This document shows, piece after piece, positions 14,809 to 28,166 of a DNA stretch of 64,000 bases. The notes under the pieces were generated by a model. It was not told the origin of the DNA and did not search any database. It saw nothing but the letters and a program-made list of their open reading frames with translations. The DNA comes from an uncultured Candidatus Rokubacteria bacterium (lineage in GTDB: Bacteria; Methylomirabilota; Methylomirabilia; Rokubacteriales; CSP1-6): assembly GCA_963771355.1 (NCBI GenBank), contig CAVYTA010000007.1, positions 416,001 to 480,000 of the forward strand, written 5' to 3'. The stretch's first letter is position 1, and each line of letters starts with the position of its first letter. Both the position numbers and the translations under genes were made by a program.

Positions 14809-15684
14809 TCAGAGCTCCAGCATGCTCTTCTGCCCCGCCAGCCCGCGCGGGCGGAGAAGCAGGATGGCGGTCATGAGGAGGTACATGACCATGATGGAGC
14901 CGCGCGGGATGACGAGGTTCGAGAGCCCGCTGACGAGGCCGACCAGGAGGCCGCCCACCACCGCGCCCCAGAAGGAGCCGATGCCGCCGATCACCACCAC
15001 GATGAAGGCCGGCATCACCGCCTCCGCGCCGATGGTGGGCTTGAGGCTCCACATGGGCGCGGCCACCACGCCGGCCACCCCGGCCAGTGCGGTGCCGAGC
15101 GCGAAGACCAGATTGCGCATGCGGGTGAGGTTGATGCCCAGCGCGCGGACCATCTCGCCGTCGTGCGCGCCCGCCTTGATGATGGCGCCGTAGGGGGTCT
15201 TCTCGATGAACCACCACACCAGGGCCAGCAGCGTCACGGCCACCACCGCCACCAGCACGCGGTACTTGGAATAGTAGAGGAAGCCCAGGTGAAACGGTCC
15301 CGCCGCGAAGGCGGGGGCGGAGACGGTGTAGCCGCGCGGTCCCCAGACGATGCGAATGACCTCTTCCAGGGCGAGCGCAGCACCGAAGGTGAAGAGCAGG
15401 CCGAAGAGGGGATCCCGTCCATAGGTGCGGCGCACGCCGAGCTCGAGCACGAGCCCCACCAGCCCCACCAGCAGGGGCGCCAGGACGAGCGCGCCCAGCC
15501 AGCCCACCCACGGGCTCAACGCGAGGGCGAAGTAGCCGCCCAGCGCGAAGAGCACGCCGTGGCTGAAGTTGATGATCTCCATGGTGCCGAGGATGAGCAT
15601 GAAGCCCAGCGCGATCACCGCGTAGAGGAGTCCGAGGACGACTCCGTTCAGCAGGTGCGTCGCCACCTCGGCCAGATCGGGCAC
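14809..15684 (-). CDS. livH: HAAT ABC permease (LivH-like)
   Basis: GLLYAVIALGF, IINFSHG, VVVIGGIGSFWG. Confidence 0.9.
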   Translation of the reverse strand: MPDLAEVATHLLNGVVLGLLYAVIALGFMLILGTMEIINFSHGVLFALGGYFALALSPWVGWLGALVLAPLLVGLVGLVLELGVRRTYGRDPLFGLLFTFGAALALEEVIRIVWGPRGYTVSAPAFAAGPFHLGFLYYSKYRVLVAVVAVTLLALVWWFIEKTPYGAIIKAGAHDGEMVRALGINLTRMRNLVFALGTALAGVAGVVAAPMWSLKPTIGAEAVMPAFIVVVIGGIGSFWGAVVGGLLVGLVSGLSNLVIPRGSIMVMYLLMTAILLLRPRGLAGQKSMLEL

Positions 15685-15748
15685 GTCAGGGCGCCGCCGC
15701 GGGCGCGAGGAGCGAGGAAGGCGGCTGAATGGATGAAGATCCAAAGAT

Positions 15749-15823
15749 GCCGGAGGGGGGCGGGGGCGCGCTCGCGGCGAATGCTGTACTGAGCAAGCGA
15801 GTGCGCCCCCGCCCCCCTCCGGC
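15749..15823. repeat. REP-like hairpin copy 1 (27-bp stem, 21-nt loop)
   Basis: gccggaggggggcgggggcgcgctcgc / loop ggcgaatgctgtactgagcaa / complementary arm with one wobble. Confidence 0.8.
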
Positions 15824-15835
15824 CACCATATGGGT

Positions 15836-17131
15836 CTATCCTCCGTAGACGGGAGTATCCGCGATCGACTGCATCTTGCACTTGGACTGCGCCTGCGGCG
15901 GCGCCGCCTGCTCGGGCGCGATGTCCGCGATCATCTCGATCATGTCCCACTTCTCCTTCATCTGGTCCTCGCGCTTGGTGCGGGCGAGCGAGATCATCTG
16001 GCCCACCAGGTGGTCCCAGGGCCGGATGGTGGACGGGTGCTTGCGGAAGTTGTCGCGGATCACATGGCCCTCGAGCGCCTTGATCACCTCGTGGTTCCGA
16101 GTGGTGCCCGCCCGCTCGATGGCGCGCAGCATCTCGCGCATGGCGAGGTAGCCGTTGGAGGAGACGTTGTCGGGCACCGGGATGGGCGCCGACGCCCAGC
16201 GCTTGCGGAAGCGGTCCACGAACTCCTTGGAGCCGGGGCCGTCGACGGTGTAGTGCCAGGTGGTGCAGAAGTGGCCGAAGGCCTTCTTGGGGCCCAGCGC
16301 CACCAGGTCCGGGAAGTCCTGCTGCGGGAACACCCAGTGCGCGTCCTTGTCGGCGCCGAACTCGTAGGCCTGCTCGCGGAGGGCGGTCTGCTCGATTCCC
16401 GCCACGTTGGCCATGACCACCTGCGGCTTGGCATTCCGGATGCGCAGGAGCTGGGCGGAGAAATCGCGCGTGCCCTGGGGGATGAGGAGCTCGCCCAGCT
16501 CCTCCGCCCCCACCTTCTTCATGCTCTCGCGGGAGGCCGCGGTCGCGTTCTTGCCCCACACGTAGTCATGGGTGAGGAGGAACCACCGGGTGCCGAGGTT
16601 CTTGACCACCAGCGGTCCCAGCGCATTGGCGAACATCCAGTTGTTGGCGTCCCAGACGAAGTTGGTGCGCTGGCACTTCTCGTTGGTCACGGTGTCGGCG
16701 CTGGAGTTGCTGTTGAAGTAGATGATTCCGTAGCGCTGGGCGAGGTCACTCAGCGGCGCCGCCACGCCGCTGCTCAGCGCGCCGATCATGAAGTCGATAC
16801 GGTCCCGCTCGATGAGGCGCTGGGCCTTGCGCACCGCCACCGAGGCGTCGGTCTCGGTGTCCTCCCACCTGTACTCGATGGGCCGCCCCAGCACGCCGCC
16901 CCGGGCGTTCTGCTCCTCGATGGCGAGGATCATGCCGCGGCGGTCGGCCTGGCCGCTGTCCGCGAAGGTGCCGGTGGCGTCGCAGGTCAGCCCGATCAGG
17001 ATCGCTTTCTTGCCTTGCGCGCGCGCCCGGCGCCAGGGGCCGATGAAGCCCACGCCGGCGCCGAGGGCCGCCGCGCCCTTGAGGATGTTCCGCCGCGTGA
17101 TCCGGGTGCCGTCTCCGAGGTGTCGCTCCAT
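15836..17131 (-). CDS. HAAT/LivK-family substrate-binding protein, Tat-exported
   Basis: TRRNILKG Tat motif; NARGGVLGRPIE; DYVWG; GTRDFSAQL. Confidence 0.9.
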   Translation of the reverse strand: MERHLGDGTRITRRNILKGAAALGAGVGFIGPWRRARAQGKKAILIGLTCDATGTFADSGQADRRGMILAIEEQNARGGVLGRPIEYRWEDTETDASVAVRKAQRLIERDRIDFMIGALSSGVAAPLSDLAQRYGIIYFNSNSSADTVTNEKCQRTNFVWDANNWMFANALGPLVVKNLGTRWFLLTHDYVWGKNATAASRESMKKVGAEELGELLIPQGTRDFSAQLLRIRNAKPQVVMANVAGIEQTALREQAYEFGADKDAHWVFPQQDFPDLVALGPKKAFGHFCTTWHYTVDGPGSKEFVDRFRKRWASAPIPVPDNVSSNGYLAMREMLRAIERAGTTRNHEVIKALEGHVIRDNFRKHPSTIRPWDHLVGQMISLARTKREDQMKEKWDMIEMIADIAPEQAAPPQAQSKCKMQSIADTPVYGG

Positions 17132-17156
17132 CGCGTGCCTCCTGGGTTGGGGTGGG

Positions 17157-17894
17157 TCAGGTGGTCTCGGCGAGGCGTCCCATCGCCTGCATCCGGTGGT
17201 GCTCGATGGCGCGCGCGGCGCGGTCGGCGTCGCCGTCCTCCAGCGCGCGCAGGATCTGTTCGTGCTCGGCCAGCGACTCGCGGGCGAACCCGCCCCGCCG
17301 GGCGTGCATGATGACGCGGTAGTACTCGCCGCGGTCCCAGACGTTCTGCAGCGTCTGGACCACCTGGCGGAGACCCGATGCCTCCCAGAGGAGGCGGTGG
17401 AACTGGCTGTCCGCCGCCACCGCGCGGGCGGCGTCCCCGGCGGCCCGCCCCGCCGCCATCTCCTTCTGGAGCGCGCGGAGCCGGGTCAGCAGGGCGGGCG
17501 AGATGCGCGTCCGCGCTTCGCGCACGCACAGGGCTTCCAGGGCCGCCATCATGAGGAAGCGCTCGCGGAACTCGTCGGCGGACAGCCCCGTGACCACCAC
17601 GTCCTTGTGGGGCGTGATGCGGACGAAGCCATCGCTCTCGAGCCGCCGCAGCGCCTGCATCACCGGAATGCGGCTCACCCCGGCGGCGACGGCGATGGCG
17701 TTGGCCACGATGCGCTCACCCGGGGCGAGGCGGCCCTCCATGATGGCCTTGCGGATGTCGCGATAGGCCAGCCCCTCGAGCGTCTCGTGCCGCGCAAGGG
17801 AGGGGAGGAGCGTGGGCGGCGCGGCGCTCGTCATCACCGTGCGGGCGGGGCGGGGCTTCGCGTGCGCGGCCTTGCGCGGCGCGCGGGTTTTCAC
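17157..17894 (-). CDS. GntR-family (FCD) transcriptional regulator
   Basis: GRLAPGERI, GVSRIPVMQALRRLESDG, DSQFH, EHEQILRAL; start uncertain. Confidence 0.9.
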   Translation of the reverse strand: MKTRAPRKAAHAKPRPARTVMTSAAPPTLLPSLARHETLEGLAYRDIRKAIMEGRLAPGERIVANAIAVAAGVSRIPVMQALRRLESDGFVRITPHKDVVVTGLSADEFRERFLMMAALEALCVREARTRISPALLTRLRALQKEMAAGRAAGDAARAVAADSQFHRLLWEASGLRQVVQTLQNVWDRGEYYRVIMHARRGGFARESLAEHEQILRALEDGDADRAARAIEHHRMQAMGRLAETT

Positions 17895-19645
17895 GCGAGC
17901 CGGAAGCCCCGCGCGGTCTCGGCGTCCTGCACGGGTCGGCAGCCCCGGAGGAAGTCGAAATCGACGCCCTCATCGGCCTGAAGCACGTGGTCGAGGAAGA
18001 GGCGGAGATAGCCGCCGGTGACGCCGTCCGGCCGCGGCCGCCACGCCGCCTTGCGCTGCGCCAGGTCCGCCTCGGGTACGAGGAGCGACAGACGGCGGTG
18101 CGGGACGTCCAGCTCGATCTCGTCGCCGTCGCGCACCAGGGCCAGCGGGCCGCCCACCGCGGATTCCGGCGCCACGTGGAGGATGACGGTGCCGTAGGAG
18201 GTGCCGCTCATCCGCGCGTCCGAGATCCGCACCATGTCCTTGACGCCGGCCTTGAGCAGGCGCGCCGGGATGGGAGCGGCGCCTGCCTCCGGCATGCCGG
18301 GACCGCCCTTGGGCCCCGACTGCTTGAGCACGAGCACGCTCGTCTCGTCGATGACGAGGTTCGGATCGTCGATGCGTCGCTCGAGATCCAGCGCGTCCTC
18401 GAACACCACCGCGCGGCCGCGATGGGTGAGGAGATGCGCGGAGGCGGCGGACTGCTTGAGGACCGCGCCGCCCGGACAGAGATTGCCGGTGAGGATGACG
18501 GTGCCGCCCTCGGGCGCGAGCGGCATCCCGAGCGGCCGGATCACGTCGGGGTTGTGGCAGACCGCGTCACGGACATTGTCGCCCAGCGTGCGCCCGTTCA
18601 CGCCTCGCGCGCGATCGTGCAGCAGCGGGAGGAGCTCCTTGAGCACCGCCGGGAGCCCGCCCGCATAGTAGAAGTCCTCCATCAGGTACTTGCCGGACGG
18701 GCGCACGTTGACGAGGAGCGGCGTCGAGCGAGACAGGTCGTCGAAGCGCTGGAGCGGCAGGGAAACCCCCACGCGTCCGGCCAGCGCCACCAGGTGCACG
18801 ATGGCGTTGGTGGAGCCGCCGACGGCCATGTCGGTGCGGATGGCGTTATCGAAGGCGGCCGCGGTGAGGATCTCGGAGGGCTTGGGGCCGCGGGCCCGCG
18901 CCATCTCCACCGCGAGCCGGCCGCTCTCCTCGGCCAGGACCAGGCGCCGCGAGTCGGCGGCGGGGATGGCGGCGTTGCCGGGCAGCGCCATGCCGAGCGT
19001 CTCCGCCATCGCCGCCATGGTGGAGGCCGTCCCCATGACCATGCAGTGGCCCGCGGAGCGCGAGAGGCAGCCTTCCACCTCGGCCATGGTCTCGTCCGTG
19101 ATCTCGCCCGCGCGCCGCTGCGCCCAGATCTTCCGCGCGTCGGTGCCGGAGCCGAGCGTCTGGCCGCCCCACATGCCGCGCAGCATGGGCCCGCCCGTCA
19201 CCATGATGGCGGGCACGTCGGCGGAGGCGGCTCCCATGAGCATGGCCGGCGTGGTCTTGTCACAGCCGGCCAGCAGCACGACGGCGTCGAGCGGATAGGC
19301 GCGGATGCACTCCTCCACGTCCATGGCCATGAGGTTGCGGAAGAGCATGGTGGTGGGCTTCATCAGGATCTCGCCCAGCGAGATCACCGGGAACTCGAGC
19401 GGGAAGCCGCCCGCGCTCCAGACGCCGCGCTTCACCGCCTCCGCCACCTGGCGGAGGTGGGCGTTGCAGTTGTTCAGCTCCGACCACGAGTTGCAGATGC
19501 CCACCACCGGGCGGCCGTCGAAGACGGCGTCCGAGAAGCCCTCCGCCTTGAGATACGAGCGGTGCATGAAGCCGTCGAGGTTCTTCGGCGCGAACCAGTT
19601 GCGGCTGCGGAGGGGGGGCGTGGCGGCGGGCGGGGTCGGCGGCAT
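17891..19645 (-). CDS. IlvD/Edd family dehydratase (L-arabinonate dehydratase-like)
   Basis: WSELNNCN, GCDKTTP, GHCMVMGTASTM, GGSTN, SDARMSGT. Confidence 0.92.
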   Translation of the reverse strand: MPPTPPAATPPLRSRNWFAPKNLDGFMHRSYLKAEGFSDAVFDGRPVVGICNSWSELNNCNAHLRQVAEAVKRGVWSAGGFPLEFPVISLGEILMKPTTMLFRNLMAMDVEECIRAYPLDAVVLLAGCDKTTPAMLMGAASADVPAIMVTGGPMLRGMWGGQTLGSGTDARKIWAQRRAGEITDETMAEVEGCLSRSAGHCMVMGTASTMAAMAETLGMALPGNAAIPAADSRRLVLAEESGRLAVEMARARGPKPSEILTAAAFDNAIRTDMAVGGSTNAIVHLVALAGRVGVSLPLQRFDDLSRSTPLLVNVRPSGKYLMEDFYYAGGLPAVLKELLPLLHDRARGVNGRTLGDNVRDAVCHNPDVIRPLGMPLAPEGGTVILTGNLCPGGAVLKQSAASAHLLTHRGRAVVFEDALDLERRIDDPNLVIDETSVLVLKQSGPKGGPGMPEAGAAPIPARLLKAGVKDMVRISDARMSGTSYGTVILHVAPESAVGGPLALVRDGDEIELDVPHRRLSLLVPEADLAQRKAAWRPRPDGVTGGYLRLFLDHVLQADEGVDFDFLRGCRPVQDAETARGFRLA

Positions 19646-19652
19646 GACGGGG

Positions 19653-19664
19653 ATTGTATACAAT
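19653..19664. promoter_or_regulatory. Palindrome ATTGTATACAAT, candidate GntR operator overlapping a TACAAT -10 box
   Basis: Perfect 12-bp AT-rich palindrome 7 nt before the ATG of an operon encoding a GntR regulator. Confidence 0.7.
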
Positions 19665-19687
19665 ATACGACCGGGGTCTTGTCAAGG

Positions 19688-19772
19688 GGCCAGAGCGCAG
19701 CCGGGGGCGCGGCGCTCGCTTGCTCAGTACAGCATTCGCCGCGAACGCCGCGCCCCCGGCTGCGCTCTGGCC
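19688..19772. repeat. REP-like hairpin copy 2 (32-bp stem, same 21-nt loop, inverted)
   Basis: Loop ttgctcagtacagcattcgcc is the exact reverse complement of the copy 1 loop. Confidence 0.8.
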
Positions 19773-19778
19773 GCCAGC

Positions 19779-21050
19779 CTACACGGTCTGCGCGATCGGG
19801 GAGCCCGCCGGTAGCTCCGCCTCGCGCCAGTCGGCGCCGCGCGGCAGTACGGCCTCGGCGGCGGCGAGCGTCGCGTACGTGGGCTCGATGCCGCGCGGGG
19901 TGCCACCCTCACTGACGACGCTCACCGCCTCCAGCAGCAGGCGGCGCGCCTGGATGATCGCGCGGTCCGCGGGGCCGAGGTGCTCGCGGCTGCGATCGAC
20001 GATCGAGCCCATGCCCTCCTGGATGGCGCGGTCCTGCACGTTGATGCCGTCGATGCCGGTGAAGCTCTCGGTCTTCTGGACCTGCCGGTCGAGCAGGTAA
20101 TTGTTCCGGCGATTGCGGATCGCGCGGAACGTCGTCTGATCGACGTCGAGCGGCCCGTTGCCGAGCCGCCGCTCGAGCCGGTCCTCTGCGGTGAGGGGCG
20201 CGGTGCCGCTGTACTCCCAGTTGTAGACCATGGTGTTCTCGTCGTCGATCGGAACCCACATGTGACCGGCCACCAGCGGCACGCCGCTCTCCGAGCGCGA
20301 GGGACGGATCTGGTGGAACGGCAAGATGAAGTGATAGGTCCGCACATGGAAGCTCGCCTCGTCGAGGGGCCGGACGCCCGCGTAGCGGTAGCCGTAGTCG
20401 GTGATGTCGACCTCGAGCGTCGGCGCCTTCCCGCGCACGAAGGGGTTGTCGGGCTTGAAGCCTGGCCGCGTGGTGTTGGTAGTGAGCAGCCGGTGCAGGA
20501 TGGGCGCGTGCGAGGTGTCGATGCCGCCCTCCAAGCCCTGCAGCCAGTTGCTCTCCTGGATCACCTTCGACACTTGGATGTGCGTCGCCGGGATACGCGT
20601 CCACGCGAAGGCCGGCGGCGCCGGCTTCCGCTCGGGCGGCCCCATGTAGACCCAGACCACGCTCCCCACCTCCACCGTGGGGTAGGAGGCGATGAAGACC
20701 TTGTCCTTGAACTGCCGCTCCTCGGGCTCGTTCATCATGTCCACGCAACGGCCGTCCACGTCGTATTTCCAGCCGTGGTAGACGCAGCGCAGTCCGCACT
20801 CTTCGTTGCGGCCGAAGAACAGCGAGGCCCGACGGTGCGGGCAGAACTCGTCGAGGAGTCCGACGCGGCCGCGCGTGTCGCGGAACGCGACGAGGTCCTC
20901 ACCCAGCAGCCGGACGCGGACGGGCGGACCATCTGGCTCCGGCAGCTCCCGCGCGAGCAGCGCGGGGATCCAGTACCGGCGCATCGTGGCGCCCATCGGC
21001 GTGCCCTGCCCGACCTCGGTCAGCCGCGCATTGTCCTCGCGTGACAGCAT
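19779..21050 (-). CDS. Rieske non-heme iron oxygenase (phthalate 4,5-dioxygenase/LigX-like)
   Basis: CPHRRASL...CVYHGW Rieske motif; EGGIDTSHAPILH iron site; QDRAIQE. Confidence 0.93.
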   Translation of the reverse strand: MLSREDNARLTEVGQGTPMGATMRRYWIPALLARELPEPDGPPVRVRLLGEDLVAFRDTRGRVGLLDEFCPHRRASLFFGRNEECGLRCVYHGWKYDVDGRCVDMMNEPEERQFKDKVFIASYPTVEVGSVVWVYMGPPERKPAPPAFAWTRIPATHIQVSKVIQESNWLQGLEGGIDTSHAPILHRLLTTNTTRPGFKPDNPFVRGKAPTLEVDITDYGYRYAGVRPLDEASFHVRTYHFILPFHQIRPSRSESGVPLVAGHMWVPIDDENTMVYNWEYSGTAPLTAEDRLERRLGNGPLDVDQTTFRAIRNRRNNYLLDRQVQKTESFTGIDGINVQDRAIQEGMGSIVDRSREHLGPADRAIIQARRLLLEAVSVVSEGGTPRGIEPTYATLAAAEAVLPRGADWREAELPAGSPIAQTV

Positions 21051-21188: not shown

Positions 21189-21266
21189 GGGCTCGTGGTG
21201 CAGCCTGGTTAGCACACTGGACTGTCAATCCAGAGGTCGCGGGTTCAATTCCCGTCGAGCCCGCCA
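21189..21266 (+). tRNA. tRNA-Asp (GTC)
   Basis: Acceptor GGGCTCG/CGAGCCC, anticodon arm CTGGA-CTGTCAA-TCCAG, T arm GGTTCAATTCC, encoded CCA. Confidence 0.97.
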
Positions 21267-21284
21267 TTCAATCAAGTGGTTAGG

Positions 21285-28053: not shown

Positions 28054-28100
28054 ACTGTCATTTCCAGAGGTCGCGGGTTCAATTCCGGTCGAGGCCGCCA
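28054..28100 (+). repeat. attR-like degenerate copy of the tRNA-Asp 3' half
   Basis: actgtca-tt-tccagaggtcgcgggttcaattccggtcgaggccgcca vs tRNA actgtca-a-tccagaggtcgcgggttcaattcccgtcgagcccgcca. Confidence 0.85.
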
Positions 28101-28166
28101 ATCAATGACAAACGTCTCGCTTGTCGTCGTTCGATCATGCCCGTGGTTCTTGGCACGAGCTGACGC

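Follow-up and report, generated by a model that had tools for sequence, protein, structure and literature searches.

Two long hairpins with different stems and one identical 21-nt loop lie 3.9 kb apart in a 64,000-nt stretch of DNA (hereafter the window) from an uncultured Candidatus Rokubacteria bacterium (assembly GCA_963771355.1, contig CAVYTA010000007.1, positions 416,001 to 480,000 of the forward strand). What kind of element carries such a loop? An earlier reading made from the letters of this stretch (the sequence-only reading) had taken the loop for a recognition sequence or the hairpins for members of an undescribed dispersed repeat family. We find that they are two copies of a dispersed palindromic repeat, 43-127 nt long (median 81 nt), which is confined to one Rokubacteria family among the genomes searched and is apparently undescribed. 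The explanation we favor, to which we give slightly better than an even chance, is that the copies are independent, family-confined, non-coding palindromes, likely non-autonomous, whose core, a small hairpin built on tandem G·A mismatches (the GA core), is read on one strand as single-stranded DNA (ssDNA) by an enzyme acting in trans.

Copy 1 occupies 15749-15823 on the forward strand and has a 27-pair stem around its core at 15776-15796; copy 2 occupies 19688-19772 on the reverse strand, with a 32-pair stem around its core at 19720-19740. The covariance model R2 scores them at 90.5 and 79.4 bits, respectively. The 21-mer matches exactly between the two copies and occurs exactly twice in the window. 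With up to 3 mismatches allowed, neither a third window match nor any match in 100 shuffles was obtained. Both stems stay paired as described, and each contains a single non-Watson-Crick pair, which is G·T on the GA strand in both (by GA strand we mean the strand that reads the 21-nt loop as in the sequence-only reading). Folding z-scores of the two hairpins range from -8.5 to -10.3 as DNA and from -8.7 to -10.5 as RNA.

A genome-wide search for the 21-mer, extended to relatives, returned further copies. The source genome (G000) contains five exact and seven near-exact loops, and eight loci by covariance model; element copies are among its most prominent long hairpins. Near-exact loops were present in 7/7 genomes of the same genus versus 1/175 others of the order, and the exact 21-mer matched 33 stretches in a species collection, all titled Rokubacteria or Methylomirabilota. 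With a first covariance model, built from 52 copies, 44 of 141 family genomes, from 18 of 48 genera, turned out to carry divergent members. A second model found none in 24 genomes from other families of the order, and in a phylum sample it matched 41 of 92 family genomes versus 0 of 57 outside the family. These genomes are incomplete metagenome-assembled genomes (MAGs), in which absence means not found in those searched. Within one genus the copy number spans 2 to ~34, and many genomes of the family have no copy. Two patterns gave no match among viral contigs, the plasmid collection held no place covering 80% of the query, and matches in low-GC metagenomes lacked a stem and were treated as chance. 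At the Rfam gathering threshold the window contained a tRNA alone, the element attracting only sub-threshold matches to miRNA hairpins. No description of a Rokubacteria palindromic repeat of this kind was found among the literature matches listed, and the lineage goes unmentioned in the available portion of the Minerva preprint. In one relative, G005, contigs often end inside a hairpin or have mirror-image ends, indicating that short-read assemblies undercount the family; two cases in this genome, L009 and L058/L078, are mirror artefacts of contig ends, of which L009 was excluded by a stem-length limit and L058 by name in the site counts.

The loop is neither unstructured nor constant across the family. 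Identity holds for the window pair, but the 21-mer is constant within the genus only; between genera the core shows the covariation of a small hairpin, with tandem G·A/A·G mismatches that hardly vary. The predicted pairs of the copy 1 core are G2-C19, C3-G18, the tandem G4·A17/A5·G16 (15779-80 opposite 15791-92) and A6-T15, closing an 8-nt apical loop. In alignment A3, which comprises 94 divergent copies, pair 6-15 is G-C in 52, A-T in 38 and something else in 4, and pair 3-18 is C-G in 79, T-A in 9 and G-C in 2; the fitting of A3 to the model inflates these pair counts, and as the copies are related the counts are not independent events. G4, A5, G16 and A17 are kept in 92, 93, 91 and 93 of the 94, respectively, while the 8-nt apex is variable. 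The layout is one of tandem G·A/A·G mismatches with Watson-Crick pairs on either side, and some subfamilies contain a second GA tandem. A kink-turn or K-loop has a 3-nt bulge beside its tandem GA; no such bulge was found here, as the flanking pairs 6-15 and 3-18 covary as direct pairs. Tandem GA-AG steps are described as unusually stable in DNA (PMC8163305). The G·A pairs of the core would have sheared geometry, and the core likely folds as a G·A-zipper; this structure exists on one strand only. At three orthologous sites, the core shows 26/315 differences compared to 1442/4505 at four-fold sites of neighboring genes; an initial figure of 16/651 was biased by pattern-based retrieval, and 26/315 is the fairer value. 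As a separate observation, one subfamily in G167 and G163 has a 14-nt apical loop (L262, L268, L277, L289 and L292).

The arms behave differently from the core. Stems range from ~20 to 45 bp, the outer arms are site-specific, and there are no conserved terminal inverted repeats. The stems are divergent, as had been noted, but they are also related: all but one of the copies (162 of 163) have a G-rich 5' arm, and the same inner arm recurs at many unrelated sites in the source genus. Wobble pairs in the stem favor the GA strand, with 75 G·T versus 20 A·C over 73 sites (one copy per site) and 32 versus 7 in the 37 sites found by core sequence alone (stem positions 4-30). The GA strand has no consistent link to the direction of transcription, being antisense at 19 and sense at 10 tandem sites and divided 9 to 9 at coding sites. 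An apparent transcription-strand bias (35 versus 11 copies) was gone once orthologues were merged into sites (9 versus 8; 19 versus 10). The comparison of leading and lagging strands had only 8 copies and a weak skew to draw on.

For the analysis of location, the 163 copies were grouped into the 73 sites, with genes called by a crude codon-based caller. Twenty-three sites lie between convergent genes, 29 between tandem genes, 2 between divergent genes and 18 inside coding sequence, with 1 unresolved; the background, taken from gaps of at least 60 nt on 4 of 8 contigs (n=579), consists of 60 convergent, 350 tandem and 169 divergent cases. There is a strong bias to the 3' ends of genes, just past stop codons. 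The neighbors are ordinary metabolic and transport genes, among which junctions between a solute-binding protein (SBP) gene and a permease gene recur. Intergenic repeats of at least three further families are also abundant in G000, with ~59, 22 and 17 regions by shared 20-mers (for example C7:149566-149666, C2:79565-79634 and C6:779000-779045); the first of these occupies one site at which relatives carry the element studied here. A comparison of L439 (G006:C8) with L168 showed a site with the element in one genome and a different palindromic repeat in the other, which suggests shared hot spots for palindromic repeats.

Comparison of matching sites in related genomes revealed both filled and empty alleles. 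Site 1, that of copy 1, has orthologous filled alleles in G002, G003, G005 and L069. Site 2 is filled in G002 and G005 and empty in G001 and G004 despite the same gene order, and one relative (L069, L086) has site 1 with no hairpin upstream of the dehydratase gene. The bracketing of the dehydratase-gntR-SBP block, to which the sequence-only reading had drawn attention, therefore finds no support as a meaningful arrangement: the two hairpins inserted independently and do not mark the ends of a cassette. At fourteen sites with a copy in other genomes, the G000 sequence is shorter by 75 nt or more. Of 22 multi-allele intergenic sites, 9 have the core in both orientations (two of the nine involve two copies in one spacer), and the core is reversed between shared arms in L042/L154 and L137/L194. 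Arms change in mirror image, as in L069, which relative to copy 1 has a 9-bp insertion in both arms, and the site 2 allele of G005 combines compensated arm changes with a partial tandem copy. Finally, a core with an extra C is common to old paralogous sites of G001, G004 and G007 and is not in orthologous alleles elsewhere; its spread across different sites points to concerted evolution. Partial tandem duplications (5' arm plus core) also precede a full copy at G000 C8:5985-6110 and in L088 (G005:C62), consistent with slippage.

The element also enters genes. In-frame coding copies occupy 18 of the 73 sites, in intact unrelated genes. Many such copies lie outside the source genus, where the host genes include those for RsmE, two pyruvate-dehydrogenase E2-type linkers, LigD, ComEC, a major facilitator superfamily (MFS) transporter, a radical SAM protein, MutS2, an oxidoreductase beta subunit, an ABC-F protein, acetolactate synthase and acyl-CoA ligases. 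Several reading frames and both orientations are used, with no one conserved encoded peptide. In a tree built without the insert region, the 27 of 47 rows that carry the RsmE insertion form one clade (support 100/96), which spans six genera. The net gain in RsmE is ~14-15 amino acids for an element length of ~23 amino acids, the antisense reading of the core aligns with a native short helix, and in an AlphaFold model residues 176-189 have pLDDT below 50 and a helix lies at 191-194. It is feasible that the element-encoded peptide replaced the native RsmE helix. In genus g6, a compensated core pair alters two RsmE residues. Empty RsmE alleles contain neither arm, the short allele of the MFS gene (L398) keeps the outer part of one arm, and some linkers have no net length gain relative to G000; the alleles compared did not show target-derived arms. 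An ArsA-like coding copy (L320) had no orthologue in 5 genomes. In L498 (G167:C463), one gene contains two opposite in-frame copies, at 1001-1069 and 1484-1552, 480 nt apart.

Among known bacterial repeats, the closest parallels are to palindromes of several kinds. As these are described in the sources consulted, Rickettsia RPEs and Bordetella BREs (PMC3184786) are likewise lineage-restricted palindromes that occur between genes and in frame in housekeeping genes and have no transposase of their own. RPEs are ~150 bp long and encode a conserved peptide, and CGTC ends some of them (PMC10969869, PMC3733652). Our element is shorter (median 81 nt), its arms differ from copy to copy, it is read in several frames and in both orientations, its GA core covaries and it lacks a CGTC tag; the likeness is one of described traits. 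REP, BIME and REPIN sequences are reported to be GC-rich palindromes past stop codons, enriched between convergent genes and in ABC operons (PMC2817692, PMC3733652), with strand-biased G·T pairs, lineage-specific sequence and variable copy number, all as seen here. The REP traits of dispersal, mostly extragenic location and gene 3'-end bias are present, but the element is not a short palindrome of 20-40 bp. REPs are described as having stems of 5-13 bp, GTAG or CGTC at the foot and a link to RAYT (REP-associated tyrosine transposase) genes (PMC2817692, PMC3733652); in contrast, the element has stems of ~20-45 bp, its conserved sequence lies at the apex, it bears no tag, and no Y1 gene was found in the searched genomes of the main carrier genera. 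Bacterial MITEs (miniature transposable elements with inverted repeats) such as Correia, RUP and Nezha (PMC3184786) resemble it as non-coding, long stem-loops with filled and empty alleles, yet they are described as having conserved terminal inverted repeats and target duplications, while in the element it is the termini that vary most, and duplications are no more frequent than in the control. The element works like REPs and RPEs but falls outside both the REP-RAYT and the MITE classes.

How could such a repeat spread? In the explanation we favor, a trans-acting enzyme would recognize the GA strand as ssDNA and spread the element; ssDNA is proposed because the structure is strand-specific while there is no bias with respect to transcription. 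The arms might be kept mirrored, and the core flipped, by template switching from one arm to the other, and copy-to-copy conversion or re-insertion could homogenize lineage-specific cores. The host may retain some copies, since either strand would give a very stable RNA hairpin past the stop codon, for instance protecting SBP mRNA; by analogy with REPs, retention probably works through this orientation-independent RNA hairpin and through tolerance in linkers, coding copies surviving as mostly disordered Gly/Pro/Ala linkers. The idea of the loop as a recognition element is plausible in a refined form, as a strand-specific sub-hairpin, although a protein that recognizes it was not found.

Several observations weigh against this explanation. 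No mobilizer was found among the gene types searched, and the RAYT or insertion sequence (IS) gene that might have been linked to the hairpins was absent beside the copies in the loci examined. The Y1/RAYT domain PF01797 was found in 0/5 genomes and in 32/159 family genomes, none in the carrier genera g1, g6, g9, g15 and g31, counts that rest on incomplete MAGs. Element copies flanked none of 30 Y1 (searched by model over ±1.5 kb), 12 IS110, 6 GIY-YIG, 10 IS91 and 4 reverse transcriptase (RT) loci. IS91/Y2 is present in 5/5 genomes and is unlinked within ±1.5 kb, the small GIY-YIG gene of G000 is operonic and without flanking repeats, and close copy pairs in L031 and L498 flank or sit in ordinary genes. 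Direct repeats of at least 5 nt occur at 8/73 sites, as in the control (8/73), though target duplications could be lost from old insertions; no fixed terminus exists across the 73 sites, the GTAG (3/73, control 4/73) and CGTC (8/73, control 11/73) feet being at background and GCAG occurring at 13 versus 4 in the control, and no empty allele was close enough for junction mapping. To these may be added the inflated counts of A3, six copies in which the extra C between G4 and A5 disrupts the tandem GA, a weaker wobble bias (138 versus 81) under lenient stem extension in 83 copies, several RsmE alleles in which the hairpin is eroded and the peptide retained, and the fact that tandem GA and G·U pairs are equally compatible with RNA.

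This last point leads to an RNA-level element, in which the GA-strand hairpin would be a 3' motif bound by a protein or RNase, or a small RNA copied back by a reverse transcriptase. The bias to G·T/G·U pairs and the tandem GA are typical of RNA, copies cluster past stop codons (23/54 intergenic sites are convergent versus 60/579 background gaps) and SBP-to-permease junctions recur. However, the GA strand is antisense to the sole flanking transcript at 19/29 tandem and at 9/18 coding sites and flips at orthologous sites; there is no Rfam match and no U-tail terminator, and RT was present in only one of five genomes that were high-copy or complete, where no copy lay near it, all of which makes this alternative unlikely. 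We consider it similarly improbable that the hairpins are a host DNA signal, namely a cruciform or ssDNA site for a nucleoid, topoisomerase or replication-restart protein that is selected site by site, with slow, passive gain and loss. Such a role would account for the ~4x higher conservation of the core at inherited positions relative to four-fold sites, for the two amino-acid changes that compensated core changes cost RsmE and for some junction sites being common to several genera, but sits poorly with the wide range of copy numbers within one genus and the many family genomes that have none. Plasmid ColE1 has a similar short GC-GA-R...Y-GA-GC motif at 1339, which we take to be its primosome site. 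Its count there is near chance (3 versus 0.79; 10/200 shuffles), and unlike the element the ColE1-type primosome-assembly (ssi) motif has neither a long stem nor a match to model R2, so that the likeness is a resemblance only.

Slightly less probable again is that the core alone is mobile, being written into a G/C-rich target (a hairpin or Pro-rich linker) with one arm made by fold-back copying. Copy-specific perfect arms would follow, as every site has its own arms and no target duplication, and the modest length gain of RsmE as well as the arm remnant in the short MFS allele would fit. Against it, the arms share a family profile (the G-rich 5' arm and the recurring inner arm of the source genus), empty RsmE alleles lack either arm, and the polarity of the MFS allele is ambiguous. 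The sequence-only reading had also allowed that the two window loops pair within one transcript, and one could take the hairpins for the ends of a mobile dehydratase-gntR-SBP cassette; they do lie in opposite orientation, 3.9 kb apart, and both are kept in G002 and G005. Yet the sites vary independently, and on the single-site alleles of G001, G004 and L086 we rejected the cassette. Since the 73 sites have unrelated neighbors and the core orientation is not fixed, cassette ends and loop-loop pairing are both highly improbable. The independent palindromes with a one-strand GA core are the reading we retain. A bolder version of it, which we regard as doubtful, is a class of selfish hairpins without fixed ends or a known REP/MITE-type transposase, whose ssDNA GA-zipper core is (re)written into G/C-rich targets and whose arms arise or are corrected by fold-back synthesis. 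If true, a selfish GA-zipper hairpin would remodel housekeeping proteins, as in the apparent replacement of the RsmE helix.

Elements of this general kind are common, and it is the GA core, the coding invasions and the core inversions that set the family above a routine repeat. Palindromes that invade proteins have been known chiefly in Rickettsia, in Bordetella and in a few REP families; they are now extended to an abundant free-living soil lineage, in which datable events are available, such as the single RsmE insertion common to six genera. The family also offers a tractable natural series for the study of mirror-perfect palindrome arms, loop inversion and concerted repeat evolution without a visible RAYT, and the GA core, being well defined, could serve directly as bait for the proposed mobilizing enzyme.

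Within the window, both copies are intergenic and lie in a run of reverse-strand genes. Copy 1 sits between the stop codon (15836) of a branched-chain-type SBP gene (PF13458, 15836-17131) and a livH-type ABC permease gene (PF02653, 14809-15684, start approximate), with its GA strand antisense to the operon. Upstream of the SBP gene are those for a GntR/FCD regulator (17157-17894) and an IlvD/Edd-family dehydratase (17891-19645). Copy 2 lies between the dehydratase gene and a Rieske oxygenase gene (PF00355 and PF19301, 19779-21050), whose stop codon (19779) is 6 nt away; here the GA strand is in the sense orientation relative to the flanking genes. No intrinsic terminator (short stem plus U-run) was called in 15500-20000. 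At 19654-19685 on the reverse strand, where a promoter scan made no call, a TTGACA hexamer (19680-85) lies 2 bases from the foot of copy 2, followed by a perfect 10-bp palindrome (19654-63) that resembles what we take to be a GntR box; the pair is partly kept upstream of the dehydratase gene in relatives and is a candidate operator of the adjacent GntR. Further along the window, a 44-nt direct repeat at 21229-21272 and 28063-28106, its copies 6.8 kb apart, corresponds to the 3' half of tRNA-Asp and suggests an integrated island with att sites.

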